The notes: a model not told the origin generated them from the sequence alone. Shown: positions 33,796 through 57,540, counted from the stretch's first letter. The stretch is DNA of 64,000 bases from a virus (IMGVR_UViG_3300032007_000054:26167-90166); one strand, 5' to 3'. Translations and numbers: made by a program.

Positions 33796-36700
33796 TGGAC
33801 TTTCTAGAAATCTCCGAAGAAGAGACCAAAAAAGGTACGGAGATCGTTGCAGGGTTCATTGTCAATAATAGAACGACCGATTTGATGACCCGGGCCAAAG
33901 ATTTTTATGCGGTCTGGGTCGAAGAACTTGGATTGTGGTCCACAGATGAACAGGATCTGATTGAGCTTGTAGATAAAGAGCTCGATCATTATTACAGTGA
34001 GCATCGTGGAAAATGGGAACGGAAGCCAAAGATCAGGCATCTGATCCGTGGTAAAAACAAAGCGATCGATGAGTTTCATCATTATTGCAAAGAGCAGCTT
34101 CGTGAAAACTGGCATCAGCTCGACGAGAAATTGATATTCTCCAATCAGAAGACAAAAAAGAAGGATTATGCAAGCAAAAAGCTTGACTATCCGCTGGAAG
34201 AAGGTCCGCATGAAGCATGGGACCGGCTTATGTCTGTTTTATATTCTGATGAGGAGCGTCATAAAATTGAATGGGCGATCGGAGCCATCGTCAGCGGTGA
34301 CTCCAAAAACATTCAGAAGTTTCTCGTGTTTTACGGTCCACCGGCTTCCGGTAAGTCCACAGTTATCCATATTATCGAAAAATTATTCAAAGGGTATTGC
34401 AGTGTTTTTGATGCCAAAGCGCTTGGATCGACAAATGAGTCATTTGCCATGGCTCCATTTAAATCCAATCCGCTCGTTGCATATCAGCATGACGGTGATC
34501 TTTCGCATATCGAAGACAACACCAGATTGAATTCGATCGTTTCTCATGAAACGGTATTGATCAATGAAAAGAATAAACCGCAATATCCGATGCGCATCAA
34601 CAGTTTTCTTTTCATGGGCACCAACAAGCCGGTACGGATCACAGACGGTAAATCAGGTCTGCTAAGACGGCTGATCGATGTCTCTCCGTCCGGCAAGAAG
34701 GTCCCGAAAAGAGAATATGATGCATTAATGAAGATGATCGACTTTGAACTTGGTGCGATCGCGTGGCATTGCCGGCAAGTTTATTTGGACGATCCGCAAT
34801 GTTATGATGAGTATACACCTTTGAATATGCTCGGTGCATCCAATGACTTTTATAATTTTGTCCTTGAAAAGTACTTCGAATACAAACAGAATGACCATGT
34901 CACATTGCAGGTCGCCTATGAGGACTATAAAAGTTATTGTGAAAGAGCGAATGCTTTCACAATGCCGATGCGGGCATTCAAAGAAGAATTAAGAAACTAT
35001 TTTGTTGATTTTAAAGACCGGGCAACGCTTGAAGACGGTACCCGGGTCCGAAGTTATTTCTCAGGATTCCGGGCAGATAAATTTGAGGAGAAATGGAAAA
35101 AGAAAGATGAGCCGAAAGAGGACCAGAAAAGGTCCTGGCTTGAATTCAAATTCCAGCCGTCACTGCTTGATATTTTGCTTGCTACTTGTGCAGCACAGTA
35201 TGCCAACAGTGAAGGAACGCCTCTGAAAGCATGGGATAACTGCTTTACAAAACTGTCCGGGCTGGATACAAGCAAACTGCATTATGTGCGGGTTCCGCTG
35301 AACCACATTGTAATTGACTTTGATATTCCAGATGAAAACGGAAATAAGTGTTTTGAAAAGAATCTGGCTGAAGCTTCAAAATGGCCTCCAACTTATGCTG
35401 AACTAAGCAAATCCGGAGCCGGGATCCATCTACATTATCTCTATCAGGGAGATCCGACAGAGCTTAAACCGATCTATAAGGAGCATGTCGAAGTCAAGGT
35501 GTTTAATGGTGCAAGCAGCCTGCGCAGACTGTTGACAAAGTGTAATGATATTCCAGTCGCCACGATCAGCTCCGGTCTTCCATTGAAGGAGAAAAAGAAA
35601 GTGGTGAGTTTTGATTCGTTCACCAACGACAAAGCACTGGTCACTGCGATCAAGCGCAACCTGAATAAGGAAAATGTCGCCGGGACGAAACCAAGTGTGG
35701 AATTGATCTATAAGGATCTTGAAAAAGCTTATGCCAGCGGGATGCATTATGATGTGTCAAAATGGAAGCAGCCGATCTATGATTTTGCTTCCAACAGCAC
35801 GCACCATGCCGGTTATTGTATCAAACTATTTAATAAAATGAAGTTTTGCTCCGAGGATGTGGCAGAAGCCGAAATAAATAATGAGCTTCCCATTGTATTT
35901 TTCGATGTGGAAGTATTCAGTAATCTGCTTCTGATCTGCTGGAAATATCCAGGCAAACAAAGTAAAGTCGTGAGGATGATCAATCCGAGTCCTGACGAAG
36001 TTCTTCATTTAATGACTAACTATCGTCTAATCGGGTTCAACTGCCGACGGTACGATAACCATATTTTGTATGCACGGAGCCTTGGAGCAAGTCTTGCCGA
36101 GATCTATGAAGTCAGCAAGGGCATTATTGCGAAGGATAAGAATGCCTTCTTTAAAGAAGCCTATAACGTATCTTATACAGATATTTATGACTTCAGCAGT
36201 AAGAAACAAAGTTTAAAGAAATTCGAGATCGATCTGGGGATCCATCATAAGGAACTTCCGATCCCATGGGATCAGCCGGTTCCTGAGGATCGCTGGGTCG
36301 AAGTTGCTGAATATTGTGACAATGATGTGATCGCGACTGAAGCGGTTTGGGAAGATCGTAAGGACGACTTTACCGCAAGGGAGATTCTGGCGGATATTGC
36401 CGGAATGAGTGTTAACGATACGACAAATACCCTGACTACCAGGATCATTTTCGGTCAGGACCGCAGTCCGCAGAGTCAGTTTAATTATCGGGATCTGAGC
36501 AAACCGGTCGGACCGGAAAGATATTCAGAATACCGGTCGATGTTTGGAGATGACTATGAATTCAGAATATTCGATCAAAATGGTCTGCCAACCTACCAGC
36601 GATATGATGGTGGAGAAATACCTGAAGGATACTCTATTCTCCCATTTTTCCCAGGATACGTCTTCGATTCCGGGAAGTCGGTTTACCTGGGTGAAGAGAT

Positions 36701-37766
36701 CGGTGAAGGCGGACGAGTCTACTCTGAACCCGGAATGTATGGGAATGTGTGGGATGCAGATGTCACCTCCATGCACCCACACAGTATCTGGGCAGAGCGT
36801 CTTTTCGGACCAAAGTACTCTCGGAAATTCTACGATCTTGTAGATATCCGTGTCGCAGTAAAGAAAGCGATCAAAACCGGAAACTTTGAAGATGCTTCAA
36901 AGATGATGGATGGAAAGCTGGCAAAATGGCTTACAGATGCGGATCAGGCAGGCGGATTGGCAAATGCTCTGAAGATCGCTATCAACTCTGTATATGGTCT
37001 GACAAGCGCCAGGTTTGAAAATCCGTTCCGTGACATTCGGAATCGGGATAATATCGTTGCCAAACGCGGTGCGCTGTTCATGACACTCCTGAAGCATGAA
37101 GTTCAGAAGCAGGGGTATCAGGTGGCCCACATCAAAACGGACTCGATCAAGATCCCGAACTGGGATGAAAAGATATTTGAGTTCGTACGGAAGTTTGGGC
37201 ATGAGTACGGATACAACTTTGAAACAGAAGCTGACTTTGACCGTTTCTGTCTGGTGAATGACGCAGTGTATATTGCTCATGATAAAAACTGGGAAGAAGC
37301 TGCTAAAAAGAATCCGGAAATTGCCTGGATGAAAGGATGGACCGCAACAGGAACACAATTTCAGATCCCTTATGTGTTTAAAACATTGTTTGCAAAAACG
37401 GATATTCAATTCGAAGACATGTGCGAAACGAAGTCGGTAACATCTGCGCTCTATCTGGATATGGATGAAAATCTGCCGGAAGGAGAGCATAACTATCAGT
37501 TTGTCGGAAGAGTCGGCTTGTTCTGTCCGGTCAAGCCCGGATCAAACGGCGGACGGCTTGTTCGGGAAGCTATCGATAAAGACGGGAACGTCAAATATGA
37601 CTCGGCAACCGGTGCGAAAGATTACCGCTGGATGGAATCGGAAGATATTCGTAATGCAAATCTATATAACATTATCGACAGAAGCTATTATGACAGGCTC
37701 GTCGAAGAAGCAATCAATGATATTTCACAGTACGGTGACTTTGAATGGTTCCGTGCTGTGAATTGA
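33795..37766 (+). CDS. SF3 helicase / primase / family B DNA polymerase fusion
   Basis: Walker A GPPASGKST, FMGTNKP; DFDIPD..ELSKSGAGIHLHY (AEP-like); Exo FFDVEVF, IGFNCRRYD; PolB DADVTSMHP, KIAINSVYG, HIKTDSIK. Confidence 0.88.
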   Translation: MDFLEISEEETKKGTEIVAGFIVNNRTTDLMTRAKDFYAVWVEELGLWSTDEQDLIELVDKELDHYYSEHRGKWERKPKIRHLIRGKNKAIDEFHHYCKEQLRENWHQLDEKLIFSNQKTKKKDYASKKLDYPLEEGPHEAWDRLMSVLYSDEERHKIEWAIGAIVSGDSKNIQKFLVFYGPPASGKSTVIHIIEKLFKGYCSVFDAKALGSTNESFAMAPFKSNPLVAYQHDGDLSHIEDNTRLNSIVSHETVLINEKNKPQYPMRINSFLFMGTNKPVRITDGKSGLLRRLIDVSPSGKKVPKREYDALMKMIDFELGAIAWHCRQVYLDDPQCYDEYTPLNMLGASNDFYNFVLEKYFEYKQNDHVTLQVAYEDYKSYCERANAFTMPMRAFKEELRNYFVDFKDRATLEDGTRVRSYFSGFRADKFEEKWKKKDEPKEDQKRSWLEFKFQPSLLDILLATCAAQYANSEGTPLKAWDNCFTKLSGLDTSKLHYVRVPLNHIVIDFDIPDENGNKCFEKNLAEASKWPPTYAELSKSGAGIHLHYLYQGDPTELKPIYKEHVEVKVFNGASSLRRLLTKCNDIPVATISSGLPLKEKKKVVSFDSFTNDKALVTAIKRNLNKENVAGTKPSVELIYKDLEKAYASGMHYDVSKWKQPIYDFASNSTHHAGYCIKLFNKMKFCSEDVAEAEINNELPIVFFDVEVFSNLLLICWKYPGKQSKVVRMINPSPDEVLHLMTNYRLIGFNCRRYDNHILYARSLGASLAEIYEVSKGIIAKDKNAFFKEAYNVSYTDIYDFSSKKQSLKKFEIDLGIHHKELPIPWDQPVPEDRWVEVAEYCDNDVIATEAVWEDRKDDFTAREILADIAGMSVNDTTNTLTTRIIFGQDRSPQSQFNYRDLSKPVGPERYSEYRSMFGDDYEFRIFDQNGLPTYQRYDGGEIPEGYSILPFFPGYVFDSGKSVYLGEEIGEGGRVYSEPGMYGNVWDADVTSMHPHSIWAERLFGPKYSRKFYDLVDIRVAVKKAIKTGNFEDASKMMDGKLAKWLTDADQAGGLANALKIAINSVYGLTSARFENPFRDIRNRDNIVAKRGALFMTLLKHEVQKQGYQVAHIKTDSIKIPNWDEKIFEFVRKFGHEYGYNFETEADFDRFCLVNDAVYIAHDKNWEEAAKKNPEIAWMKGWTATGTQFQIPYVFKTLFAKTDIQFEDMCETKSVTSALYLDMDENLPEGEHNYQFVGRVGLFCPVKPGSNGGRLVREAIDKDGNVKYDSATGAKDYRWMESEDIRNANLYNIIDRSYYDRLVEEAINDISQYGDFEWFRAVN

Positions 37767-37782
37767 TATTTAAAGGTCGTTT

Positions 37783-38028
37783 ATGAAAGAAAAAATAGAA
37801 AAGTTCTTTGCAAAATTAGTCGGATATATAGCCTGTGTATGGCTGATCATCTGGATTATTCCGTTGATCATCTGCGGGTTCATGATTGATATTTTGCTGG
37901 CTTTCTTTGGATTGGAAAGCGAATATATGTGTGTGAAAAACTTCGGCCTGTGGTTAAGGAAGGTCGGAGAAGGTTTAAAACTTTCAAAAAATAATAACAA
38001 TCAGGAGATCAAAGAAGAAAATGAGTGA
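37783..38028 (+). CDS. Small membrane protein
   Basis: Long hydrophobic segment. Confidence 0.6.
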   Translation: MKEKIEKFFAKLVGYIACVWLIIWIIPLIICGFMIDILLAFFGLESEYMCVKNFGLWLRKVGEGLKLSKNNNNQEIKEENE

Positions 38029-38647
38029 AATGAGATTTGTACGTAATGGTCGTGGTAAAGAACAGTTGGTAATTGAAGATGCAGTCCTTCGTTTTAACAA
38101 CTTTGAAGGAAGACAAACAGATTTTAATGCTCTCGGTAACCGAAATATTGATGTAATTCTTCCGGATAATAAAATGGCGGTTGAGATGGGCGAAAATGGG
38201 TGGAATGTAAAGATCCGCAAGCCGCGTGATCCGGAAGATGATCCGTATTATACATTGAATATTAAAATCAATTTGGACAGTCGTTGGCCACCGCGGATTT
38301 TCCAGCATAATAAACGAGAAACTATCGAACTCACATCACTTGATTATTGGAAAAAAGTACTTCACGACGAATGCAAAACAGAAGAAGAGTTTACTCGTCG
38401 TTATCCAACATTCGGTGATCTTGAGAAAGCTGCTCATGAAGAAATGCTTAATGCTATATCAAGTTTGGATAATTTGTCTCTTGAAAACATTTGCATGGTT
38501 GTAAATGGATCAGCATGGGATTCTCAATTTGGTCATGGTATTAAAGCTTATTTGGATGAATTTCATTTTCGTCCAGCACCTTCATTGTTTGGTAAATACT
38601 ATGACAATGAAGAACCTGAACTGGAGACTGAAGATATTCCGTTTTAA
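38021..38647 (+). CDS. ssb: Phage single-stranded DNA-binding protein
   Basis: FNNFEG..GNRN..NGWNVK..KAYL; acidic tail ETEDIPF; next to polymerase. Confidence 0.7.
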   Translation: MSEMRFVRNGRGKEQLVIEDAVLRFNNFEGRQTDFNALGNRNIDVILPDNKMAVEMGENGWNVKIRKPRDPEDDPYYTLNIKINLDSRWPPRIFQHNKRETIELTSLDYWKKVLHDECKTEEEFTRRYPTFGDLEKAAHEEMLNAISSLDNLSLENICMVVNGSAWDSQFGHGIKAYLDEFHFRPAPSLFGKYYDNEEPELETEDIPF

Positions 38648-38658
38648 TTAGACAACAG

Positions 38659-38698
38659 CAGTGAGGAGCAGGATTGATATTCTGTTCCTCACTTTTTG
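38659..38698 (+). terminator. Intrinsic terminator
   Basis: AGTGAGGAGCAGGA-ttgata-TTCTGTTCCTCACT followed by T-run. Confidence 0.7.
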
Positions 38699-38706
38699 AG
38701 GTTAAG

Positions 38707-38859
38707 ATGATCATTTTATCGGTATTGCTGCTTTTAAGCGTTATGGATCTGATCCTTTGGAAACTTTTCGGAAAGATCCTGATCGGTATCCTTGCCGGCC
38801 TGTTTATGGCAAATATCGTTACTGTTATCACACTGCTTATTGTTTGTCTGCTGGCATGA
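38707..38859 (+). CDS. Small membrane protein
   Basis: Two hydrophobic segments; ATGA overlap. Confidence 0.5.
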   Translation: MIILSVLLLLSVMDLILWKLFGKILIGILAGLFMANIVTVITLLIVCLLA

Positions 38860-39248
38860 GAACAATAGAAGCTGTCAGACTCGAAGCTGAATTATATGTA
38901 TTATGGAAGGAATTAGAAAAAATGGCTAAGAAACTTGAAGGTATTGCACTCGCAAATGATATTATGCTGAAGGAACTCGCTGTATTCATGGCTGCGAAGA
39001 AGTTTTATGGAAAAGAAGTATCTGCCGAAGAGCAGAAAAAGAAAGCTGCATTTGATATTTCCAAGCGCGGAAAGCTTTATAAAATGCTGGCCGCTGAAGG
39101 GATCGTCACAAAGTATGATCTTGCACTGAATGTTGCTCCGGCAAATCTCAACACCGCCACATTCGGCGATTATGCCAAGATCGTTCAGCAGTATCGTGCT
39201 CAGGTAATCAAAAAGTCTTTTCAGCATCGTAAGGACGAATGTAAATGA
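38856..39248 (+). CDS. Hypothetical protein
   Basis: Start uncertain (38856 or 38922). Confidence 0.6.
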   Translation: MRTIEAVRLEAELYVLWKELEKMAKKLEGIALANDIMLKELAVFMAAKKFYGKEVSAEEQKKKAAFDISKRGKLYKMLAAEGIVTKYDLALNVAPANLNTATFGDYAKIVQQYRAQVIKKSFQHRKDECK

Positions 39249-39949: not shown

Positions 39950-40154
39950 GAAGCCTTATCTTGATATTACTCACGGATGTCTTTATTGCAAATACTTCAA
40001 AATGCCCAGAAAAAACGGAAAAGCTTTTACCGGATACTGCATCGCGAATGAGATCCATGTCCGATACTATGATATTTGCAGTAAATACGTGGATAACACT
40101 ACGAAAGGAAACAAAGATGACTCAGTTTTACAAGGTAAGCAGGAAACAGTTTGA
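39939..40154 (+). CDS. Small Cys-rich protein
   Basis: CLYCKYF..YC..C..Y. Confidence 0.5.
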   Translation: MQDKKPYLDITHGCLYCKYFKMPRKNGKAFTGYCIANEIHVRYYDICSKYVDNTTKGNKDDSVLQGKQETV

Positions 40155-40620
40155 AAAAGACTGTGAATTGATATTTCATTACCCGTTTCATCCTGACTAT
40201 GAAGCTATAAAGCATCCGATCCGTTCAACACGTTTCAGCGCCGGCTATGATATTTTCGCTCCATATAACTTTGTTATGCATCCGGGAGATACAATGACTG
40301 TTCCTACCGGATTCAAGATCGAAATGAATCCCCACCAGTTTCTGATGATCGTTCCGCGATCCGGATTGGGATTCAAATATCAGCTTTGTTTATGCAATAC
40401 GGTTGGGATCATTGATGCCGATTACTATGATAATCCTTCGAATGAAGGGCACATCATGGTGAAAGTTGTGAATCGGGGAGATTCAACAATTCAGATCGAA
40501 GCCGGGCAGGCCTTTTGCCAGGGAATCATTATGTCTTATGATACATGTGACGATGATAATGTCTTGTTTGCACGAAAAGGCGGACTCGGCTCGACGGACA
40601 ATAAAGAGGTATCTGTATGA
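40117..40620 (+). CDS. dut: Trimeric dUTPase
   Basis: RSTRFSAGYDI, VPRSGLG, GIIDADYY, QGI, RKGGLGST. Confidence 0.92.
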   Translation: MTQFYKVSRKQFEKDCELIFHYPFHPDYEAIKHPIRSTRFSAGYDIFAPYNFVMHPGDTMTVPTGFKIEMNPHQFLMIVPRSGLGFKYQLCLCNTVGIIDADYYDNPSNEGHIMVKVVNRGDSTIQIEAGQAFCQGIIMSYDTCDDDNVLFARKGGLGSTDNKEVSV

Positions 40621-40871: not shown

Positions 40872-42768
40872 AGATTTTTCCTATGAATTAAGTAAATTAA
40901 AACGAACATACGGTGAAGATCTGGCTGCGCTGAACGGACTTTCGGACAGCCAGCTGGATTACACCGATTTTATTGATAATTTTATCGACACCGAGACTGT
41001 TGCGGACGCTTCTGTTGACGCAAATGCTAATGTCTCCAATAAGTCGATCGTAACACTGTTGAATGAAATGGCGAAGCCTCATCAGAAGCTTCTTGCGTTC
41101 AATAAGATATTTTATGAAATGAAAAAGAAATACGGCCTGGAAACCGCGAAGGAATGGCTGCAATCCGAATGGTCCGGTGAACTTTATATGCATGATGCGC
41201 ATCATGCAAGTTATCTGCATTACTGCTGGGCATCCAGCCTGCAGGATCTGGCAGAAAAAGGGCTGTACTTCATTGATAATTTCAATGCCGAACCGCCGAA
41301 GCATCTTGGCACCTTTGTGGATTTTGTGAAGGAATTTATATCCTTCTGCGCAAATTCGTCCAGCGGTGCTGTCGGCCTTCCGGATCTGATAGTTTATATG
41401 TACTACTTCTGGGACCGTGATGTCAAGAAAGATTATTATACGGAAACTCCGGAGAAGTACGCCAAACAGCAGATCCAACGTCTGATCTACGCATTGAACC
41501 AACCGTTCCTGCGCGGAAACATCCAGTCTGCATTCACCAATACTTCGATCTTTGATCACCCCTATCTTGAAGCCCTGTTCGGTGGAATGATATTCCCGGA
41601 TGGAGCAATGATGATCGACGAGATCGAAGAGATCTGCAGTTTCCAAAAGCTCTTCATGAATACCATGCATGAGATCCGGGAAAAGAACATGATGACTTAT
41701 CCGGTGAATACGATCAGCCTTCTGAAAGATAAAGAAGGTAATTTTGTCGATGAAGATTTCGCAAAATGGGCCTGCGAACAGAACATGAAATGGTGCGACA
41801 GCAACTTCTTCATTGATGATTCTGTCACATCACTCAGTTCCTGCTGCCGGCTGTCAAATAATGTGAAAGATCTTTATATGAACTCGATAGGCGGAACGGC
41901 ACTGAAAGTCGGATCTGAAAAGGTCTGTACGATCAACCTGGCAAGGATCGCTTATGAATCTGAAGACCGCAATAATGATAAGATGTTCTTCTTTGATATT
42001 TTGAACGAACGGGTCCTGCTCTGCCTGAAAGCATTGGATACAGTCCGTCACATCATTGAACGGAACATCGAAAAAGGCCTGATGAAGAACTTTGATAAAG
42101 GCATCGTGGAAATGGACAAATTATATTCTACGATCGGTATCATCGGGATCTATGAAACGCTGGATAAGTTTGGCTATGTTCGTAAGGACGACTTCGGCTA
42201 TACGACCTATACCGAAGAAGGATTGATATTTGCCGAAGAGATCCTAAAAAGGATCCATCAGATCAAAGACGAGTTCAAAAAAGATCATAACTATATGATC
42301 AACATCGAAGCCGTTCCCGCGGAATCCGCTGCAGCAAAGCTGATGAAGAAGGATAAGATATTCTATCCGAATGAAAAGTATGAGCTGCCGCTTTATGCAA
42401 ATCAATGGATCCCGCTGGCTGTACGGACATCGATCGAGAATAAGATCAAGATCAGTGCAAGGATCGATGAAGCCTGTACCGGTGGTTCGATCTGCCACAT
42501 CAATCTTGATGCGCCTTTCCATTCATTTGATATTGCATGGGATCTGCTGCGTGAACTGGCGAAGTCCGGTGTTAAGTACTTCGCTTTCTGCACCAGGATC
42601 AGCGCCTGTGAGCACAACCATGCATTTTACGGTGAGATCTGCCCGGTTTGCGGCGGACCTAAAGTAACGACCTATCAGCGTATCGTGGGCTTTCTTACGC
42701 CGGTAAGGACCTGGTCTGAGCCTCGTAAGGAAGAGTTCTATATGAGGGATTGGATGAAAGTTGAGTAG
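40846..42768 (+). CDS. nrdD: Anaerobic (class III) ribonucleotide reductase
   Basis: YMHD, SSCCRL, AVPAESAA, CPVCG, glycyl-radical motif YQRIVGFL. Confidence 0.92.
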   Translation: MKINIKLDEDFSYELSKLKRTYGEDLAALNGLSDSQLDYTDFIDNFIDTETVADASVDANANVSNKSIVTLLNEMAKPHQKLLAFNKIFYEMKKKYGLETAKEWLQSEWSGELYMHDAHHASYLHYCWASSLQDLAEKGLYFIDNFNAEPPKHLGTFVDFVKEFISFCANSSSGAVGLPDLIVYMYYFWDRDVKKDYYTETPEKYAKQQIQRLIYALNQPFLRGNIQSAFTNTSIFDHPYLEALFGGMIFPDGAMMIDEIEEICSFQKLFMNTMHEIREKNMMTYPVNTISLLKDKEGNFVDEDFAKWACEQNMKWCDSNFFIDDSVTSLSSCCRLSNNVKDLYMNSIGGTALKVGSEKVCTINLARIAYESEDRNNDKMFFFDILNERVLLCLKALDTVRHIIERNIEKGLMKNFDKGIVEMDKLYSTIGIIGIYETLDKFGYVRKDDFGYTTYTEEGLIFAEEILKRIHQIKDEFKKDHNYMINIEAVPAESAAAKLMKKDKIFYPNEKYELPLYANQWIPLAVRTSIENKIKISARIDEACTGGSICHINLDAPFHSFDIAWDLLRELAKSGVKYFAFCTRISACEHNHAFYGEICPVCGGPKVTTYQRIVGFLTPVRTWSEPRKEEFYMRDWMKVE

Positions 42769-42970
42769 TTTTATATTGCACTTTAAGTATTGGGATGGAT
42801 ATTCCCGCGATTACGGCATGCAGTTTGAGGATGGCATCCCTGATGATGCGGCATTTAATTTTATTGAAGAGTTTTTATCAGCAAACGGTTTTGTCAAAAT
42901 GACTAATGGCCGATGGGCAGATAAAAACCTTACTGTTGTGACAGTTACTATAAAAAAGAAACTTGTATGA
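42761..42970 (+). CDS. Hypothetical protein
   Basis: Fills nrdD-nrdG gap with overlaps at both ends. Confidence 0.5.
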   Translation: MSSFILHFKYWDGYSRDYGMQFEDGIPDDAAFNFIEEFLSANGFVKMTNGRWADKNLTVVTVTIKKKLV

Positions 42971-43512
42971 AATTAAATAACCTGATCGAAGAAGATTTTG
43001 TAAACTATGAAAAGCCGGGGTTATTCCTCGGCTTTCCTTATTGTACTGGAAAGTGCAATCCAAAAGACGATCTGCCGATCTGCCAGAATCAGCGTCTGCA
43101 CTGTGCAAAACTGATTGATATTTCAATTCCCGAGATCCTGCATCGATTTGAAACAAATCCGATCTCAGAAGCACTGATCTGCGGAGGGCTTGAGCCGTTT
43201 GACAGCTTTGCCGATTTACTCAGCCTTTGTATCGCTTTCCGGAAAAAGTATAAGATCCGGCCTTATCCGATCATCATCTATACCGGATACTATCCACATG
43301 AAATAAAAGAACAGCTCTGTGCACTGAAAAATATCGAAAATGTCATTGTCAAGTTCGGACGTTATATTCCTGGGCATCAGCCGCATCTTGATCCTTATCT
43401 GGGTGTTGATCTGGCTTCTGATAATCAATATGCCATTCCGCTTGATATTCTCTGGCAGGGAATAGATCTGTTTGACTACCTTGGGTGTAAGTACGAAGAA
43501 AAGAAGGATTGA
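42967..43512 (+). CDS. nrdG: RNR activating radical SAM enzyme
   Basis: C.GKC...CQN, GGLEPF, IYTGY, KFGRY, LAS.NQY. Confidence 0.85.
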   Translation: MKLNNLIEEDFVNYEKPGLFLGFPYCTGKCNPKDDLPICQNQRLHCAKLIDISIPEILHRFETNPISEALICGGLEPFDSFADLLSLCIAFRKKYKIRPYPIIIYTGYYPHEIKEQLCALKNIENVIVKFGRYIPGHQPHLDPYLGVDLASDNQYAIPLDILWQGIDLFDYLGCKYEEKKD

Positions 43513-43517
43513 TATTT

Positions 43518-45673: not shown

Positions 45674-45976
45674 ATGGAAAACAAGTTTAATCCTGTAAAG
45701 TTTGCAGCGTCTGTTATTGTTTTCGGGATCATCGGCGGTGTTACGGCTTTGATCAACGGCATTCAGAAAAAACAACAGGAAAAGAAATTCGGCTGGATGT
45801 CTGCCTGGAAAGTAGATCCGGATGACCTTCCTGCCGGGTCCAATATCTACCTGGATGTGGATAAGCAGAAACTGCTTGATTATGATACTGGTGAGATCCT
45901 GGAAGATTTTTCTCAGTATGAAGACCCGAAGAAAGCGATGACAGAGTTCATGAACCTGATGTGGAGTTTTAAATGA
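45674..45976 (+). CDS. Membrane-anchored hypothetical protein
   Basis: N-terminal TM. Confidence 0.65.
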   Translation: MENKFNPVKFAASVIVFGIIGGVTALINGIQKKQQEKKFGWMSAWKVDPDDLPAGSNIYLDVDKQKLLDYDTGEILEDFSQYEDPKKAMTEFMNLMWSFK

Positions 45977-46260
45977 CAGAACTTGGAAAAGTATTAAAAG
46001 GTTTAAAGTGTTGTAAAGGGCTGAACGGTGAGCAGCCTGTTCCTTTTACAAGCAATCGAAAATGTACGGAATGCCCTTATATGGAAGTCCCTGCTCTTCT
46101 TACCGGAGAACTGCCCAGATACTATTGTCATCATACAAACCTGATGCAGGATACGATTGATATTTTGACCGGGTATGTAAAAGCCAACATCCATCAGGAG
46201 AAGCGGCTTAAAGATCAGCAGAACTGGTTCGATTCATGGAGCGACTGCAATTACTTATGA
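45973..46260 (+). CDS. Cys-rich hypothetical protein
   Basis: KGLKCC..CTECPY..C. Confidence 0.65.
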   Translation: MTELGKVLKGLKCCKGLNGEQPVPFTSNRKCTECPYMEVPALLTGELPRYYCHHTNLMQDTIDILTGYVKANIHQEKRLKDQQNWFDSWSDCNYL

Positions 46261-47443: not shown

Positions 47444-47710
47444 ATGGATATTTGGTTGGCAGTTTTACTGATCATCCTCATAGGAGCCGGGTGCGGTTTC
47501 GGAGGGTATAAATACGGTTTGAAAAAAGGTGCAAAGAACCGTGAAGAAAAAATACTACAGGAATTTATGATGTATGTCCCGTTGGGACGGGTCGGATCCG
47601 TTGCTCAGGATCTGATCGAAAACGATGGATATTCCGAAAACTTTCCTATGCTGATCGTGGCGCCATCAAAGTATAACTATTTGGATGGGCCTGATCCGGA
47701 ACAGGATTGA
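47444..47710 (+). CDS. Membrane-anchored hypothetical protein
   Basis: N-terminal TM. Confidence 0.65.
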   Translation: MDIWLAVLLIILIGAGCGFGGYKYGLKKGAKNREEKILQEFMMYVPLGRVGSVAQDLIENDGYSENFPMLIVAPSKYNYLDGPDPEQD

Positions 47711-47777
47711 TATTTTAGCTCGTAAGTTCAAAGTCCACAATACGTGGGCTTTTTGTTTTTAAAACGAAAGGAAACAC

Positions 47778-48608
47778 ATGTCTATTATCTCTATGCTTGG
47801 CGGGGCTGAGGCCGGTACGGTAGAAGAACTGAATCAAAGACTGTCTGAGCTTTCAGAAAAGTTTGAAACAATTGCCGGAAATCTTAAAAATCTCGAAACT
47901 ATGACGGAAACCGTAAAACTTCGTGTTGAAGAATTAAGCAACAGTGTTGCATCCATCACCCATGAATGGAACGGCAGTGAAGAACAGGGAATGACAAAGC
48001 GCGTTGCCGATCTCGAACGGATGCAGAAGTACTTTCAGAGCTCCCATGGGAAAGCGCTGAATGATATTCACGACCTCAAGGTCGAACTGCATGGTCTTTA
48101 CAACCGTCAGACACCCCCTCCGGATGAGGAGCTTCAGCAGTCTGTCGATCGGAATCCGAAGAAAAAGGAATTGATCGATGTAGTACAGGAATCTGATTTC
48201 TCTCAATTTCGGAAACACAATCTTCTCAATACTCTTGAGAAGAATAATCTGACAACCTTTGAGAGTATCAAAGGAAAGACATTTGATGACCTTTGTGACA
48301 TCAAGGATATCGGTCCGGCATCAGCATCTCTTTTGGTCAAACTTCGTCAGAAGTATTACGGCGAAGTTGACAACGCCAAGATCATTCGGGAAAACATCCC
48401 GATGTACAGCATCCGTGATGTCGTTAAGGGCATGAAGCTCACGCAGGTCCAGAAGAGCCGGATCACCAATACTCTTTACAAGTATGGCGTAAATACATTA
48501 ACTGATCTTTCGGATCTTGAATATGAAGAGGTCTGTAAGATTCCGCATTTCGGCTCCGGTTCTGTGGCTGCCGTGAAACAGATCTACCAGAATTATATTT
48601 GGAGGTAA
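47778..48608 (+). CDS. Coiled-coil protein with two RNAP alphaCTD-like (HhH) domains
   Basis: LLNTLEKNNLTT..L.DIKDIGPAS and ITNTLYKYGVNTLTDL..V.KIPHFG.GS..VK. Confidence 0.6.
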   Translation: MSIISMLGGAEAGTVEELNQRLSELSEKFETIAGNLKNLETMTETVKLRVEELSNSVASITHEWNGSEEQGMTKRVADLERMQKYFQSSHGKALNDIHDLKVELHGLYNRQTPPPDEELQQSVDRNPKKKELIDVVQESDFSQFRKHNLLNTLEKNNLTTFESIKGKTFDDLCDIKDIGPASASLLVKLRQKYYGEVDNAKIIRENIPMYSIRDVVKGMKLTQVQKSRITNTLYKYGVNTLTDLSDLEYEEVCKIPHFGSGSVAAVKQIYQNYIWR

Positions 48609-49174: not shown

Positions 49175-49398
49175 GTGAAATAACCTTAGTATTGTTTGTG
49201 CTGCTGTTTGTCACTGTGATATTTGTCATCTACTTCTTTCAGATCAGTGCAAGGATTGACAATCTCACAAAGAAGTATAACGATCTGCTTGAAGATTCTT
49301 ATCGGGATAATCTCCGCTATGCTAGTCAGTTTGATCATTTATACACAGCGGTTCGTGAACTTAGTAAAACATTTGAGGACTTGAATAAATATGAGTGA
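49171..49398 (+). CDS. Membrane-anchored coiled-coil protein
   Basis: N-terminal TM. Confidence 0.6.
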   Translation: MSEITLVLFVLLFVTVIFVIYFFQISARIDNLTKKYNDLLEDSYRDNLRYASQFDHLYTAVRELSKTFEDLNKYE

Positions 49399-49801
49399 AA
49401 CTAATATGTTTATTGCTATTTTCTTCGGCTTTGCCCTACTGATGATCGTGCTCTTTTATATTTTAATGAGCCGGCGCATTGATGAGATCAGCGAGAAGAT
49501 CATCAAATGGCAGTCTCTGCAGGCTGATTTTAATCAGACACAGAATGAGATCAATATCGAAATAAAGAATTCTTTTGATGCCGTCGACGCAGCATCAGTT
49601 ATGCTTACTGAAAAAGTGAATCATCTTGAAATAAATACTAAAGCTCAAGATAATCAAATCGGAATGATCAAAGATTCTCTTCAAAAAGTTTCCGCAGAAA
49701 CACCATCTGAACGATGTGATGCACTCGAAAAGAGATTCTCTGCCCTTAAGAAGCTTGTCGAGGATTATACCGAGATCCTCCTTGACCATGCAATGCAGTA
49801 A
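49391..49801 (+). CDS. Membrane-anchored coiled-coil protein
   Basis: N-terminal TM plus heptad pattern. Confidence 0.65.
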   Translation: MSETNMFIAIFFGFALLMIVLFYILMSRRIDEISEKIIKWQSLQADFNQTQNEINIEIKNSFDAVDAASVMLTEKVNHLEINTKAQDNQIGMIKDSLQKVSAETPSERCDALEKRFSALKKLVEDYTEILLDHAMQ

Positions 49802-49918
49802 TTGATATTTCCTCCGCGCTATAACAACTGCCATTTCTAACCATTTTGCCTCCTTTGAAAATAGTGTATGCCTCCGTATGGCGCGGGCGGAGGCTCTTTT
49901 TTAATTGAAAGGAAAATA

Positions 49919-50735: not shown

Positions 50736-50899
50736 ATAGATATTTGGCAAATTGGGTACGTGTCGGTAAAGGTCTCGGATGCATTCTGATGATGGTTCCC
50801 CTCGGGATCATCGGAGCATTGACAGATGGCATCCTTGGAAAAAACAGTTTTACGGTAACTGCTGAGAACAACAAGACCGGAGAGAAACATGTCTTTTGA
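50732..50899 (+). CDS. Small hypothetical protein (55 aa)
   Basis: Read manually; ATGA overlap, fills gap. Confidence 0.5.
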   Translation: MNRYLANWVRVGKGLGCILMMVPLGIIGALTDGILGKNSFTVTAENNKTGEKHVF

Positions 50900-51284
50900 T
50901 ATTGACTACTCCAAAAGTCCGCATGAGGTAGAAGCTACTTCATTAAATCGTGTAGTTACGAACGATTACACTTACACTATTGATACCGGAAAACTTTTTC
51001 ATGTTCCGCTTCCGAATGAAGAGCAGACAGCTGCAATGATGGGTGGGATGAAATGGTTCAAAACCGCAGAAGATGAACTTTGTCCAAATCCATCAGAAGT
51101 TCCGGTCGAGACAGCTCCTTCTTATATTCATGAGACGCATGATCATGATTCAGATGATGGTATGAGTGTCCATCTCAGTGTTGACGATGATGGAGAATTT
51201 GTATCGTATACAGTCCGCAATGTCAAAACTGTTGAAGAAGTACTTACAATCCTTGAGATGATGAAGCGCATCGTCTCGGATTGA
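50889..51284 (+). CDS. Acidic hypothetical protein
   Basis: ORF in operon. Confidence 0.6.
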   Translation: MSFDIDYSKSPHEVEATSLNRVVTNDYTYTIDTGKLFHVPLPNEEQTAAMMGGMKWFKTAEDELCPNPSEVPVETAPSYIHETHDHDSDDGMSVHLSVDDDGEFVSYTVRNVKTVEEVLTILEMMKRIVSD

Positions 51285-51295
51285 TATTTACCGCA

Positions 51296-52434: not shown

Positions 52435-52512
52435 AAAAGCCCGCAAGGGCTTTTGCTTTTTAAACTAAGGTCGTAAGTACGCGGCCTTTTATATTTTAAT
52501 GAGGAGATCATT

Positions 52513-52704
52513 ATGAAAAAAGTTTTGTTTGTTGTCCTGTTAGCTATTGTTGTCGCCGGTCTGATCGGCGGAGTTTTTGCCTGGAAAAACCAGGTTTGGA
52601 TGTTTGCTCCGAAAGAAACCGAAGTGACCGAAGAGATCACAGTAACTGAAGAACCCGCGGCTGAGATCGAGATCCCTGTCGAAGTGCCAGCTGACGGTCA
52701 GTAA
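52513..52704 (+). CDS. Small exported/membrane acidic protein
   Basis: Signal-like MKKVLFVVLLAIVV; Glu-rich tail. Confidence 0.65.
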   Translation: MKKVLFVVLLAIVVAGLIGGVFAWKNQVWMFAPKETEVTEEITVTEEPAAEIEIPVEVPADGQ

Positions 52705-52731
52705 TTGATATTTAGGAACGAAAGGAAACAA

Positions 52732-53226: not shown

Positions 53227-53642
53227 GCATGTTCTATACGATTTACGCTTACGGTGATTTTGACAAGAAGAATCAGGCCTGGGATGACGGGATCACAAAA
53301 TACAGTGAGCCGGTCCATCAAACACGAAAGGATATGGAAGCGATCATATCCCGGAAACCGCATAAGATGATCAATCTTGATAAGGCGACATGCCCAGATG
53401 TTCAGGAGTATTTGTCTCAGGAAAAAGACGGCAAACGCCATGTGCGCCTTGCCGTAAAGGCAATGGGGTATGCTCATGCTCTGGAACGTGCGAAAGCTTA
53501 TTGCAATAAAACCTACAAACCGAAACGAAACCGTAAAAAGCAGGTATCCGCAAAGGATCTGATGAGCTTTATGGGTTATGTTTCCGGTGTTTCCGCCAAA
53601 GCATCCGGCGGAAGATCGTATATGTCTGATTATGTATTTTAA
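53223..53642 (+). CDS. Hypothetical protein
   Basis: ATGA overlap. Confidence 0.65.
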   Translation: MSMFYTIYAYGDFDKKNQAWDDGITKYSEPVHQTRKDMEAIISRKPHKMINLDKATCPDVQEYLSQEKDGKRHVRLAVKAMGYAHALERAKAYCNKTYKPKRNRKKQVSAKDLMSFMGYVSGVSAKASGGRSYMSDYVF

Positions 53643-53653
53643 GGAGAAAACTT

Positions 53654-54121
53654 ATGCCTTGTGAATCACATTCTTATGATGCAGCATTATATTTTTATGA
53701 CGGCGTGAATTGGAAACTGCTCAGCCACGTTCGCTGTGATGAGGACTGTCCTAGTATCTGGAAAGATGAGGAGACGAAAGTGGAAGAAGAACAGAAAGTA
53801 CCGGATGAAAGGTTTGAAAGAGATCTCAGCAATCTGAAAAAGAAGCTGAAGAACAAGTTCTATGAACAGGGTTATTTAACTGTAGGGGATATGGTTGAGC
53901 TTCTTCATCTGAATGTCAATGGACCGGACTTCAATCCTTATATTCTTTATACAGGAGATACAAAACTTTATCGAAATGCGATGGAGAATCTTGCGATCAA
54001 GAAATATCGTGCGCATAGAAGCAACATCAATAATAATAAATATACTTCTGCAGAATACCGCGAATTCCAGCGCATCAACATGGCTCTTGACGATCTCGAG
54101 AACACCAAGCAGCAGAACTAA
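53654..54121 (+). CDS. Hypothetical protein
   Basis: AAGGAG RBS; QGYLTVGDM resembles the GW-family segment. Confidence 0.65.
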   Translation: MPCESHSYDAALYFYDGVNWKLLSHVRCDEDCPSIWKDEETKVEEEQKVPDERFERDLSNLKKKLKNKFYEQGYLTVGDMVELLHLNVNGPDFNPYILYTGDTKLYRNAMENLAIKKYRAHRSNINNNKYTSAEYREFQRINMALDDLENTKQQN

Positions 54122-54199
54122 GTTCTGACTCCGGATAAACGCAAAGAGGGTTTGTAAATTTTACAAGCCCTCATTATTTTTAAATGAAAGGAACCACAA

Positions 54200-54688
54200 A
54201 TGTGTTACACACTGCAGGAATGTCTGGAACGGACCGGCAGCCTTCGGCGAGGCAAATATGTTTACCGGGTGCTCTGTGAGAATGGCATCAGGACCTGGGA
54301 TGATTTTGTTGCAAAACCTATCCCTTCCAAGGGCCTATATAATAATGAAGTCCTTGCCCTGAACAGGATCCGCATGAAGGAGCTTGATATTCGTGAGGCG
54401 AAGGCTTCCGCTTACAACGATTTGGTAAGCTTGCTGTCGAAATATGTTCGTAAGAATGATGCCCGTCGTATCGCTTCGAGCCTTAAGCGGGAAGATATCT
54501 GGTCCATGCGGCTGCTTGCCTCAACTCCGGATGAAAAACTGGAGAAGATCTATGGGATCGGGCCGAAGAGCCTTGATATTTTAAAGAAGGTCAAGACCTT
54601 TCTTAATTCCCCAAAAGCGATGACAAGCGGTAAATCAAAAGCCGTATCGGCTGCTCCCTCTCCGTTCCAACCACTATTAGCCTATTAG
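54200..54688 (+). CDS. Protein with alphaCTD-like (HhH) domains
   Basis: RVLCENGIRTWDDF and RIASSLKREDI....L...DEKLEKIYGIGPKSLDILKK. Confidence 0.6.
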   Translation: MCYTLQECLERTGSLRRGKYVYRVLCENGIRTWDDFVAKPIPSKGLYNNEVLALNRIRMKELDIREAKASAYNDLVSLLSKYVRKNDARRIASSLKREDIWSMRLLASTPDEKLEKIYGIGPKSLDILKKVKTFLNSPKAMTSGKSKAVSAAPSPFQPLLAY

Positions 54689-54701
54689 GAGATTGATATT
54701 T

Positions 54702-55052
54702 ATGAAACAAGTTTCTGCTATCAGTAAACCTGTTATGCTGCGTATCGATTACGAAGCTGACTTTCACAGGGATTTTCTTTGCGACAACCGTGATCATCTG
54801 ATGAACATACTGGAACTGATGCTCGGGCATTATATGGGTGAAGCCGTATACAAAATTCTTGATAAGCGAGAGGAATGTAAATTTCCATCAGGTTACCGTG
54901 ACATGTTCTTAGAGAAGAATCATTATATTTTTCGGATTCATGCCGAATTTGATTACAAATTCCCCGATAGCAAAATGCCAAAGCATAAGAAACCGGAGAA
55001 AGAAAATGCCGACGAAGTACAACAAGAACGAACTGAAACTGAAGATCTATGA
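54702..55052 (+). CDS. Hypothetical protein
   Basis: ORF in operon. Confidence 0.55.
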   Translation: MKQVSAISKPVMLRIDYEADFHRDFLCDNRDHLMNILELMLGHYMGEAVYKILDKREECKFPSGYRDMFLEKNHYIFRIHAEFDYKFPDSKMPKHKKPEKENADEVQQERTETEDL

Positions 55053-55152
55053 GTATCTGGATGAAGGCTTCTTCCCGGAAGACATTGCGGAGATCCTTGA
55101 TATTTCGCTGCCGGAAGTTATCCAATTAATCAAAGAGGTCGAGGGTGGATAG
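55006..55152 (+). CDS. Small HTH protein
   Basis: GFFPEDIAEILDISLPEV. Confidence 0.55.
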   Translation: MPTKYNKNELKLKIYEYLDEGFFPEDIAEILDISLPEVIQLIKEVEGG

Positions 55153-55465
55153 ATACTGGAGCTTAAGCGGAAAACTATTTTCCGGCGATCAACCGATCCT
55201 TAGGATCAATGAATGCTATGAGATCGATTATTTATCAGATGAGACAAAAGATTATATGCAGGATAGAGATTATGCCTGCCGTATCTATTCTGATATTTAC
55301 GATGATCTTCTCAATATGCAATACCATGCGATCATTAAAGCAAAAGATCAGAATAACATGCTGCTTGTATTAGCACAGAACACCAGGCAGGTGCAGATCC
55401 TTCTGGATTTTCAGCTGCCTTACAACCAAAAAAGTCCGAAAGAGGATCCGAATGAAAACGATTGA
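55145..55465 (+). CDS. Hypothetical protein
   Basis: ORF in operon. Confidence 0.55.
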   Translation: MDRYWSLSGKLFSGDQPILRINECYEIDYLSDETKDYMQDRDYACRIYSDIYDDLLNMQYHAIIKAKDQNNMLLVLAQNTRQVQILLDFQLPYNQKSPKEDPNEND

Positions 55466-56027
55466 AATGGCATGGAAACATTTTAAAACCATATGCCGCC
55501 ATAAGTATTACGTTTACCAGGAGTGCCGGGCTTGCGGTATTACCTGGCAGGGGATCATCCATGATCTGTCTAAATTCAGTGCGACTGAGTTTATTCCTTC
55601 TGCAAAGTATTTTCAAGGTGATAGAAGTCCGATCGAAGCAGAAAAAGAAGCCTGCGGTTATTCTTTTGCATGGCTGCATCATAAAGGCTGCAACCCGCAT
55701 CATTGGGAATTCTGGACAGACTTTGCAGAAGCTGATGGAGGCGTGATCACAAATAAGATCCCATATCAATATGTTGTTGAAATGGTATGCGATTGGATCG
55801 GCGCAGGAAAAGCTTACCAGAAAGAAGCATGGACGCAGGATTCACCGATGAACCATTACATAAAAATGCGGAAAGGCCGGTATTTTCATCCGGAGACTGA
55901 CAAACTGATTGTTCAGTTTCTTATCTGCATTAAAAGCAAAGGCCTGGATGAGTTTCATAAAATGGCAAAGTGTGAAAGTCCTTATTCTTATACCAGGATT
56001 GACTATGAAGGGGTATATGTTCCGTGA
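55452..56027 (+). CDS. DUF5662-like HD-type phosphohydrolase
   Basis: RHKYYV, HDLSKFS..EF, HHK..NPHHWE.W, EMVCDW. Confidence 0.7.
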   Translation: MKTIEMAWKHFKTICRHKYYVYQECRACGITWQGIIHDLSKFSATEFIPSAKYFQGDRSPIEAEKEACGYSFAWLHHKGCNPHHWEFWTDFAEADGGVITNKIPYQYVVEMVCDWIGAGKAYQKEAWTQDSPMNHYIKMRKGRYFHPETDKLIVQFLICIKSKGLDEFHKMAKCESPYSYTRIDYEGVYVP

Positions 56028-56419
56028 AGACATTTGACGATTTATGGAAATGTATGTTCGTTGCGATCGGTGTTCTTGGTATTCTCGTATTTTTCTTCGG
56101 TCCACCGAAAGCAGCAATGAATCCGGACCCGACACCGACTGTGATATTTGATGGCGTTACCGCGGATCAGATCGCTCGTGTTGAGGAAATGTGCCGAAGA
56201 TATATTGAACTATGGGAATCTGATCTGGAACTCTATAATGAGACTGCCGACAGTGATAGGCCCAAGATTCAGGAGATCCATGAGCGTGTAAAGACTCGTA
56301 TGAACGAGATCAGTGATATGTATAACAACTACCTTATTACCAATGGCTATGTTTTTAACGGAACACTGCCTGATGGTATTTATGCATGTATTGAACGAAT
56401 CGGAGATACTGATGAATGA
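56024..56419 (+). CDS. Membrane-anchored hypothetical protein
   Basis: N-terminal TM. Confidence 0.6.
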   Translation: MKTFDDLWKCMFVAIGVLGILVFFFGPPKAAMNPDPTPTVIFDGVTADQIARVEEMCRRYIELWESDLELYNETADSDRPKIQEIHERVKTRMNEISDMYNNYLITNGYVFNGTLPDGIYACIERIGDTDE

Positions 56420-56825
56420 TCTTGTTGAAAGAAGAGCGGTATTAGCTCTTGCAAAAGATATTTCCGTTGTGACTATAGATGGATCTGAATACTCTCACCG
56501 ATGTATTGATCCTGGCGATGTAATAGAGATGCCGTCAGCCAGTAATCCGGATTACGAATTTCATGAATGGTGCCATGACTGCAAGGAATACGACCAAAAA
56601 CAACACTGCTGCCATCGCTGGACACAAGTTATCCGAAAGACTTATGAGGAGATAAAGGCAAGAAAAAAGCCTGCAAAAGTGATCCAGCAGCGGGTCGACT
56701 ATAGTAATTATGACGAATTTATGACGCAGCATCTGATCGGCGAATGTGATTACTGCGGTACAGATGTTATTGAAGGCGACAATTATTGTTCTTATTGCGG
56801 ATGCAAACTGGAGTGGAAAGAATGA
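56412..56825 (+). CDS. Zinc-ribbon phage protein
   Basis: CHDCKEY, CDYCG..NYCSYCGCKL. Confidence 0.7.
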   Translation: MNDLVERRAVLALAKDISVVTIDGSEYSHRCIDPGDVIEMPSASNPDYEFHEWCHDCKEYDQKQHCCHRWTQVIRKTYEEIKARKKPAKVIQQRVDYSNYDEFMTQHLIGECDYCGTDVIEGDNYCSYCGCKLEWKE

Positions 56826-57169
56826 TATTTCAAACACAAACTCAACGTAAAAACATTTTTGACGAATTCACAAAGAAACTTCGTGAACGTGCAGCAATGG
56901 ATCCTAAGACTCGTAAGGATGGGAATCTGAATTATCTGTTTTTGGTTTATGACAGAGATAAAAACGAGATATCCCATTATTCTGCATACACTACAAATAA
57001 TAACTATCCTGAATTAATCGAGATGTTGATCTGGGAACATCTAATTGATATTTCCGAGGATGAACTTACCGAAGACGAGGTCCGTGCTCATTACAACTGG
57101 ATCCTGAAACGGATAAGTGATATTTGTGTTAAAAGAATTGAAAAAGCTCGTAAGGACATAGAGGCGTAA
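56822..57169 (+). CDS. Hypothetical protein
   Basis: ATGA overlap. Confidence 0.6.
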   Translation: MIFQTQTQRKNIFDEFTKKLRERAAMDPKTRKDGNLNYLFLVYDRDKNEISHYSAYTTNNNYPELIEMLIWEHLIDISEDELTEDEVRAHYNWILKRISDICVKRIEKARKDIEA

Positions 57170-57540
57170 TGTACTATCTGTTGAAAATCCCGCTTAATAT
57201 GAATGACGAAAAGACTGTCATCACCCCGTCTGAAGAGATGGCTTTTGATATTTGGCATGCGGACGAGGCTTATGAACATTTCGCCAAGTCATGCTACCCG
57301 ACAACAAACTGGGAGATCATCGGACCAAAACCTAATAAGCAAAATTACGTAATTGCTTATTCTGTCTCGATCCCTGATATTTACAACGAGCTGCATAACA
57401 TCACCCTCCTCATCCATGCGACCGATGATGATAGCTGTGATGATGCCGCAGCAGATTGGATCCTGGATTACCAGAATGATATTCTCAAAGCCGAATGGCT
57501 CAAAAGCAACGAACTTCCGGATACACACAAGGAGAATTAA
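57169..57540 (+). CDS. Hypothetical protein
   Basis: TAATG coupling. Confidence 0.6.
   Translation: MYYLLKIPLNMNDEKTVITPSEEMAFDIWHADEAYEHFAKSCYPTTNWEIIGPKPNKQNYVIAYSVSIPDIYNELHNITLLIHATDDDSCDDAAADWILDYQNDILKAEWLKSNELPDTHKEN

Follow-up and report, generated by a model that had tools for sequence, protein, structure and literature searches.

Why does a phage genome repeat a short word on one strand and in several reading frames, and what might read it? The question is raised by IMGVR_UViG_3300032007_000054:26167-90166, a 64,000-nucleotide stretch of viral DNA (the window, here meaning the whole of that stretch) that forms bases 26167-90166 of a 90,166-bp gut phage record rated complete by CheckV. 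Almost all of its genes lie on the + strand, the exception being the integrase gene (window 15742-16980). Two words, TTGATATTT and TTCAAAATGG, rank as the genome's two most over-represented oriented words. A sequence-only reading of the window had listed 23 copies of TTGATATTT; each is an exact + strand copy, and the window holds none on the - strand. The excess claimed there holds, although the stated expectation of about 1 was slightly too low, since dinucleotide shuffles averaged 2.54 copies and reached 9 at most. TTCAAAATGG occurs 14+/0- in the window, with 0.5 expected. Over the whole genome the counts are 27+/1- for TTGATATTT and 19+/0- for TTCAAAATGG, and those of their cores are 50+/3- (TGATATTT, 8 bases of TTGATATTT) and 25+/0- (TCAAAATGG, 9 bases of TTCAAAATGG). 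We find the words to be a genuine signal under selection at the DNA level, specific to one strand, private to the phage, evenly spaced and conserved in relatives.

The plainest explanation would be that the words have no function and are a by-product of Asp-Ile codon pairs, of AT-rich composition, or of a host-wide word such as Chi or an uptake sequence. Because the genes all lie on one strand, some strand bias is expected of any word, and the x-Asp-Ile-x frame does hold 13 of the 16 intragenic copies of TTGATATTT. For the codon-aware nulls, genes were called and either synonymous codons or codon order were shuffled within each gene. Five complete genomes were sampled for comparison; the nulls cover this phage, the cultured Faecalibacterium phage FP_oengus and Gordonia phage Gravy, and Lactococcus phage 1706 and Arthrobacter phage Circum are represented by raw counts. 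The 16 intragenic copies of TTGATATTT compare with 2.3 under synonymous shuffling and 1.4 under codon-order shuffling (maximum 6). The 10 intragenic copies of TTCAAAATGG, distributed over all three frames (2, 4 and 4), compare with 1.6 and 0.35. Enrichment of the words over codon-aware expectation is 7- to 10-fold. The sequence-only reading had named two findings that would undo its signal, namely an explanation by Asp-Ile codon-pair usage or an equal frequency on the minus strand. The shuffles rule out the first and the strand counts show no parity, so neither was found. As had also been claimed, TTGATATTT falls in different reading frames: besides the x-Asp-Ile-x copies, three are read as Leu-Ile-Phe in rare codons, and a third frame appears at gene ends. 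That third frame contains TGA, and four copies therefore serve as stop codons of upstream genes. This use of a rare-codon frame and of the word's own stop weighs against a by-product, as do the lack of enrichment in host genomes and the retention of the words, with positions turning over, in relatives whose replicases are 67-88% identical (protein). We regard a by-product as extremely improbable. The words are an oriented DNA-level signal and not a consequence of coding.

The individual sites in the window are given below; each is a copy of TTGATATTT except for the hairpin at 38659.

13541-13549, + strand: intergenic; a start at 13552 lies 2 nt downstream
15692-15700, + strand: between the last structural gene and the integrase 3' end, at the centre of the inverted repeat CATTCCTACAA/TTGTAGGAATG
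16980-16988, + strand: overlaps the opposite-strand integrase start codon and forms the spacer between the Shine-Dalgarno (SD) sequence and the ATG of int
24522-24530, + strand: within ORF (open reading frame) 24335-24766, read F-D-I-F
35167-35175, + strand: within the replicase gene (33795-37766), L-D-I-L
37763-37771, + strand: its TGA ends the replicase gene
37886-37894, + strand: within ORF 37783-38028, I-D-I-L
38659-38698, + strand: hairpin resembling a terminator; its loop holds the variant GATTGATATTC, and TTTTT comes next
39052-39060, + strand: within ORF 38757-39248, F-D-I-S
40168-40176, + strand: within ORF 39961-40620, rare-codon frame L-I-F
41993-42001, + strand: within the NrdD gene, F-D-I-L
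42223-42231, + strand: within the NrdD gene, frame L-I-F
43115-43123, + strand: within ORF 42967-43512, I-D-I-S
43509-43517, + strand: its TGA stops ORF 42967-43512, and the next ATG (43518) adjoins
46157-46165, + strand: within ORF 45973-46260, I-D-I-L
47707-47715, + strand: its TGA stops ORF 47444-47710; a hairpin follows (47730-47752)
49802-49810, + strand: adjoins the TAA stop of ORF 49391-49801 on the 3' side
51281-51289, + strand: its TGA stops ORF 50889-51284
52705-52713, + strand: adjoins the TAA stop of ORF 52513-52704, with an SD and ATG downstream
54573-54581, + strand: within ORF 54200-54688, L-D-I-L
54693-54701, + strand: spacer from an SD (AGGAGA) to the ATG at 54702
55097-55105, + strand: within ORF 54940-55152, x-D-I-x frame
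57045-57053, + strand: within ORF 56786-57169, I-D-I-S
57245-57253, + strand: within ORF 57169-57540, F-D-I-W

Many copies were said to overlap stops or starts, and this is borne out: those at 37763, 43509, 47707 and 51281 supply a TGA stop, those at 49802 and 52705 lie just after TAA, and those at 43509 and 54693 stand just before ATG. The variant placed in the loop of the 38659 terminator is likewise present. At int, the use of the word as the SD-ATG spacer recurs in two relatives (L005 and L006). The integrase gene is also flanked on both sides by inverted TCCTACA/TGTAGGA repeats (window 15648-15720 and 16989-17021), which are candidate attP core sites.

The proposed partition of the genome between TTGATATTT and a second word is also seen, as two territories.

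679-36583, + strand: zone A, with 14 exact TTCAAAATGG (679 to 35384) and TCAAAATGG cores to 36575-36583, in all three frames or just after stops
35168-58906, + strand: zone B, with 33 copies of the core TGATATTT at a mean spacing of about 740 bp, the closest pair at least 46 bp apart
Genome 7.5-62.7 kb: capsid through structural genes, integrase and early genes into the replicase gene, carrying TCAAAATGG
Genome 61.3-85 kb: replication and nucleotide-metabolism genes, with TGATATTT dominant
About 14 kb at the record ends: terminase, portal, nucleases and RNA polymerase, with neither word

Over genome 61.3-83.5 kb, zone B holds TGATATTT at 31+/1-, with 2.3 expected. That the zones meet near 35.2-35.4 kb is true of this genome, where the border falls inside the replicase gene, but not of its relatives, in which the zones overlap by several kilobases. 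Upstream of the window, an ORF of 3,932 amino acids (genome 13796-25594) holds three TTGATATTT and one TTCAAAATGG; FP_oengus, 1706, Gravy and Circum have homologues of its product, their tape measure proteins. Another sequence confined to one strand, TCGTAAG(GAC), has 12 copies on the + strand of window 33227-57148 and none on the opposite one, three copies being in non-coding hairpin loops. Its bias is probably a codon or peptide effect, because most copies share one reading frame (Arg-Lys-Asp).

Placement and spacing describe what is being selected. In the close clade, 67 of 100 copies are intragenic, with positions uniform along genes (Kolmogorov-Smirnov p=0.79), and 33% lie in non-coding DNA, which makes up 9% of the sequence, giving a density 4-5 times higher there. 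The favoured spots, just upstream of an SD sequence or beside an ATG, are where free space exists. Gaps are more even than random (coefficient of variation 0.6-0.9), with a minimum of 46 bp, and 0.6% of gaps fall below one tenth of the mean, where 9.5% would be expected. This pattern fits a word selected for density along one strand, and not sites tied to particular genes. The words themselves are sharply defined. In close relatives ATTGATATTT has 71 copies and variants at core positions 3-7 and 9 have 0-6; the main tolerated core variant, T-to-A at position 8, gives GATAAT and has 13 copies, followed by a weaker one with A in place of T at position 2, which has 12; TCAAAATGG is essentially invariant. 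Profiles of 173, 2199 and 70 sites showed no flanking conservation of the kind expected of a larger motif, a -35 element or a downstream start signal. A shared degenerate word, TTSAWAWT, was considered behind both motifs and rejected, as enrichment is limited to the two specific variants. A hairpin-dependent terminator or pause with the word as its U-tract was also set aside, because hairpins upstream of the word show only a weak excess.

Orientation follows the genome and not the local gene. In minus-strand integrase genes the words still lie on the + strand, with 10 forward and 1 reverse (5.4 expected; p=0.008, synonymous shuffles); the same comparison in other minus-strand genes was dropped because the candidate ORFs have no Pfam support and are probably spurious. 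Reversed copies are also selected against. The reverse complement of [CGT]ATATT occurs 0 times inside coding sequences of Gravy against 17-22 expected (minimum 8 in 100 shuffles), and the reversed word is mildly depleted in coding sequences of this phage (12 against 20) and of FP_oengus (5 against 11-13). Such a purge is what one would expect were a reversed copy to initiate or obstruct some process in the wrong direction. Taken together, the sense-only words, the purge, the + strand retention inside integrase genes, the nAnnnT hexamer common to both words and the strong promoter (see below) and the tolerated variant GATAAT point to a reader that acts directionally and for which reversed sites do harm. 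As a separate observation on Gravy (L088, record 10000-59545), the gene strand has almost no AATAT pentamer, AATATN being found once in 49.5 kb. Six copies of the palindrome AATATT would be expected and there are none, and ATATT-containing words are enriched 5-10 times. In phage T7, EcoP15I sites (CAGCAG) are strand-biased, evading Type III restriction. The likeness lies in an asymmetric word kept on one strand and reversed copies selected against, most clearly in Gravy, but evasion would cover orientation and not the codon-aware enrichment or the even spacing.

Host DNA and related phages show to whom the words belong. A Roseburia faecis assembly carries a relative with a replicase 68% identical, and its single 65-kb phage contig holds 25 of the 79 copies of TTGATATTT and 9 of the 15 copies of TTCAAAATGG, all on one strand; in the remaining ~1.9 Mb the words are sparse and on both strands. 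In a complete Clostridiales genome, 18 of 58 copies of ATTATATTY lie within 19 kb of prophage. Host DNA has a copy about every 36-320 kb, on either strand; in phage one occurs every 1-7 kb and on a single strand, at a density 14-100 times higher. Chi, KOPS/SRS and DNA uptake sequences are oriented words of host chromosomes, and those here resemble them as sharp 8- to 10-mers whose density and orientation are selected and which are tolerated in coding frames; that Chi, KOPS and uptake words are read by a DNA-tracking machine we count as a further likeness. They differ in their density in phage relative to host and in being two words with territories of their own. The low whole-genome counts in the two host assemblies rule out a host Chi, KOPS or uptake function. 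One-strand retention at synonymous sites, together with privacy against the host, implies that something reads the words.

Conservation in relatives, which the sequence-only reading had proposed as a check, is clear: both words recur on the same strand and in similar zones in L002-L006 and FP_oengus. Four syntenic relatives (replicase 67-88% identical, protein) have 7-23 TTGATATTT and 4-7 TTCAAAATGG per 24 kb, all on the gene strand and with positions partly turned over. In FP_oengus, TGATATTT is found at 33+/0- (2.4 expected) across the early and replication region, and TCAAAATGG at 11+/0- near the integrase and in a second stretch running from the terminase gene to the end of the structural genes. 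About 80 Clostridia prophages whose replicases are 51-68% identical to that of this phage carry TTATATTT instead. At most of these 80 loci the top oriented word is TTATATT[TC], with up to 39+/0- per 24 kb; TTATATT differs from TGATATT by one base, and a core T[G/T]ATATT is common to most of the loci, spanning prophages of many host families without diversifying. Gravy (lytic, cluster DJ), which has the same polymerase, replicase and promoter type, carries ATATTT at 51+/0- and CATATTTG at 19+/0-, with 40 sense words in coding sequences against 7.8 expected. By raw counts, 1706 and Circum have the same core genes and no such word. A search of IMG/VR by peptide patterns found no close relatives, and no near-identical phage records turned up. 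We found no description of the words in the literature on FP_oengus, on the 1706/actinophage supercluster or on cluster DJ phages; searching for the words themselves returned unrelated primer matches only, and the DJ literature mentions just a 50-bp motif.

The closest published parallel is with the stoperators of Cluster A mycobacteriophages (L5 gp71, Bxb1 and the TipsytheTRex repressor; PMC6550527, PMC9283540), which are likewise short, asymmetric, dispersed, co-oriented with transcription, phage-private, often at junctions or stops, and present in 20-30 or more copies per genome. By analogy, the words could be roadblock or operator sites at which a phage DNA-binding protein blocks or regulates transcription in an orientation-dependent way. 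It suits this idea that the phage is temperate, with an integrase and no classical repressor found, and that the virulent phage 1706 is without the words. Stoperators, however, lie intergenically (PMC5559632), and here genes contain 67% of the copies, spread uniformly along their length; the words are also 8-10 bp and not 13-14 bp long, and two of them partition the genome. Immunity operators diversify, their motif varying with the repressor between immunity groups (PMC6550527), in contrast to a core that stays constant across prophages of many host families and does not follow immunity groups. Nor does an orientation-dependent roadblock predict the purge of reversed copies. Gravy, of cluster DJ, is lytic (PMC9671010), and its related word weakens the link to lysogeny. 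A candidate repressor was not found by gene presence and absence, which gave no partner, or by Pfam, which recovered only the integrase and the helix-turn-helix (HTH) modules of the polymerase, most small ORFs being without annotation. The earlier remark that no CI-like repressor is evident stands, no CI/Cro-type domain being seen beyond sub-threshold HTH_3/sigma70_r4 matches in the RNA polymerase. On balance stoperator-like sites seem unlikely. The distributed operator-like silencing suggested in the sequence-only reading is not supported, given mostly intragenic copies, a core that has not diversified and a lytic phage with a related word, and silencing, while still conceivable, is no longer the leading reading. 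Because the intergenic location is lacking and no cognate repressor was found, we do not place the words in the stoperator family and file them as a version of dispersed oriented phage recognition words outside it. A further comparison is with the SPbeta element SPBRE, a 15-bp motif of about 10 promoter regions bound by the master repressor MrpR (PMC10516654). It too is a repeated word in a temperate Firmicutes phage encoding a YonO-type RNA polymerase (PMC10516654), but the words here are intragenic and evenly spaced, and there is no second, MrpR-like recombinase, the genome holding one tyrosine recombinase.

The geometry could also suit a strand-specific DNA transaction, such as T5-like nicks, lagging-strand priming by the fused helicase-primase-polymerase, or hotspot or protection sites for a Cas4-like exonuclease and annealing protein. 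One strand, even spacing of 0.5-1 kb and independence from gene boundaries fit DNA-tracking processes. An orientation that ignores the local gene also speaks for this reading. A purge of reversed copies would be expected if sites on two strands created double-strand breaks, and the replicase family has a sequence-dependent primase (PMC12205980). Against this, two words partition the genome and some 14 kb has neither, whereas a genome-wide process should use one word; and since the words are not shared with host DNA, host Chi, KOPS and uptake functions are excluded. Among homologues, GP55 has been characterised; its priming site is 5'-CCAAC-3', used with low stringency (PMC12205980), and CCAAC is not strand-biased (38/55) in phage 1706, which has no dispersed word. 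The primase-site idea is weakened both by the GP55 specificity (PMC12205980) and by 1706 and Circum, which have the replicase and no dispersed word. Overall, we consider a DNA transaction of this kind fairly unlikely.

Alternatively, the words may act in mRNA (as UGAUAUUU and UCAAAAUGG), where an RNA-binding protein or endoribonuclease would bind or cut them and so mark or time transcript classes, in the manner of T4 RegB. They are always on the sense strand of a unidirectionally transcribed genome, their density per transcript length is roughly constant, separate gene blocks carry separate words, and one variant is shown in a hairpin loop. An mRNA signal should not, however, keep to the + strand inside minus-strand integrase genes (the statistics here being modest), and the purge of reverse complements is unexpected unless antisense RNA matters. 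Both words also occur within one apparent operon, and no RNA-binding or RNase domain was recognised. A search for antisense or tRNA-like RNA complementary to the words gave no candidate. We judge an RNA-level role quite improbable.

Any role in transcription has to be seen beside other signals in the same DNA.

Window 17015-59906: composite promoter-like motif TTTRCAT-N4-5-CCTATAATGR, at least 18 copies, e.g. at 17017, 17281, 18720, 19147, 19577, 20019, 20358, 21193 and 21306, and further at 21483, 27214, 45136, 45296, 46895, 47168, 52214 and 59872
Window 17264-52460: GCCCGCAAGGGC / GCCCTACATGGGC hairpins with T-tracts, 12 copies, e.g. at 17264, 18692, 20002, 45633, 47151 and 52436

The composite motif stands alongside GCCCGCAAGGGC-type terminators and is often followed by a 5' hairpin (AGAGGA...TCCTCT). 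Lactococcus phage 1706 and Gordonia phage Gravy have promoters of the same type (CTATAGTAGA and CCTATAATGA respectively, each 10+/0-). The GCCCGCAAGGGC / GCCCTACATGGGC hairpins are terminator-like elements delimiting small gene cassettes, and the + strand of 37.5-57.4 kb has 43 terminator-like sites against 14.5 in shuffles. Since a separate, longer promoter is present, the short words would be an additional layer and not the main promoters.

The reader that we rank first, with low confidence, is the phage's own transcription apparatus, which would take the words as -10-like signals. An nAnnnT hexamer is found in both words and in the strong promoter (GATATT, CAAAAT and TATAAT), and the tolerated variant GATAAT is closer to TATAAT than GATATT is. 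In our best explanation, TTGATATTT (core TGATATTT) and TTCAAAATGG (core TCAAAATGG) are recognition words private to the phage, held by selection on the gene-rich strand at fairly regular intervals, one per 0.5-2 kb. They enter coding sequence via synonymous and rare codons and occupy free intergenic space. Their reader would be the single-chain two-barrel RNA polymerase, which has the only detectable DNA-binding HTH modules, or its partner, and the words would be secondary -10-like signals on the non-template strand. The sites may then serve as distributed weak start, re-engagement or pause signals that keep transcription in the + direction, with a distinct word for each gene block.

A parallel is offered by the late promoters of T4, TATAAATA, which are read by gp55. 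These are also an 8-bp AT-rich -10-like word without a -35 element, present in dozens of sense copies, and their service to one temporal class of genes may be counted as a likeness. The words here depart from that pattern: no factor resembling gp55 or sigma turned up, this phage already has a strong promoter of another type, and copies are not concentrated upstream of genes. They are 4-5 times denser in non-coding DNA, and those inside genes do not lean towards the 3' end.

Several observations weigh against the transcription apparatus as reader. A much longer promoter and terminators already exist, so the words are not needed as main promoters, and intragenic copies are not biased to the 3' ends of upstream genes, unlike ordinary promoters. 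Site profiles show no conserved start nucleotide or upstream element, and the words are sharp over 8-9 positions, beyond typical -10 elements. One apparent operon carries both words, with the switch inside the replicase gene, which is odd for transcription-class signals. Finally, the word is absent from 1706 and Circum even though their polymerase, replicase and promoter type are the same, and the core machinery thus does not require it.

The search for a reader in the genome gave few candidates. There was no match to sigma70_r2, although very divergent gp55-like factors would escape these models, and weak sub-threshold matches to HTH_3 and sigma70_r4 are confined to the 916-amino-acid two-barrel RNA polymerase (window 60879-63629). 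Gene co-occurrence found no partner, and no protein is shared specifically with the loci L070 or L082. Two proteins whose genes adjoin that of the replicase on its upstream side (window 32140-32787 and 32796-33350) are conserved in all 84 related loci that reach there, and their genes are missing from the motif-less phage 1706. Their AlphaFold models are confident (pLDDT 82) and match no solved fold. One of them, of 184 amino acids, has counterparts in 232 phage records, from Arthrobacter, Gordonia, Streptomyces, Faecalibacterium and other hosts. The absence from 1706 made the pair look promising as readers, but the 184-amino-acid protein is also present in the motif-less Circum. Separately, window 47778-48608, inside zone B, encodes a 276-amino-acid protein whose C-terminal domain resembles the alpha-subunit CTD of bacterial RNA polymerase (Pfam RNA_pol_A_CTD, E=1.9e-7) and which has helix-hairpin-helix motifs, features that make it a possible AT-rich DNA binder.

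A broader reading, which we hold to be possible if doubtful, is that the words are phage-private oriented 'architecture' sequences, density-selected and evenly spaced like Chi or KOPS and set in two territories. The two-barrel RNA polymerase or the replisome would read them, and they would mark phage DNA and its direction against host DNA. An ATATT core common to phages of Firmicutes and Actinobacteria would then be an old lineage feature.

Dispersed oriented phage words have so far been known mainly from mycobacteriophage stoperators. The present version is spread widely among the prophages of major gut Clostridia, one of them a cultured phage of Faecalibacterium prausnitzii, and a lytic Gordonia phage has a word similar to it. 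It is distinctive in being short, mostly intragenic and evenly spaced, in comprising two words with their own territories, and in the selection against reverse orientation. The words may offer a cheap handle on recognition by the two-barrel RNA polymerase and the four-in-one replicase of this phage family, and they could be used as a signature of such prophages and of their orientation in metagenomes.

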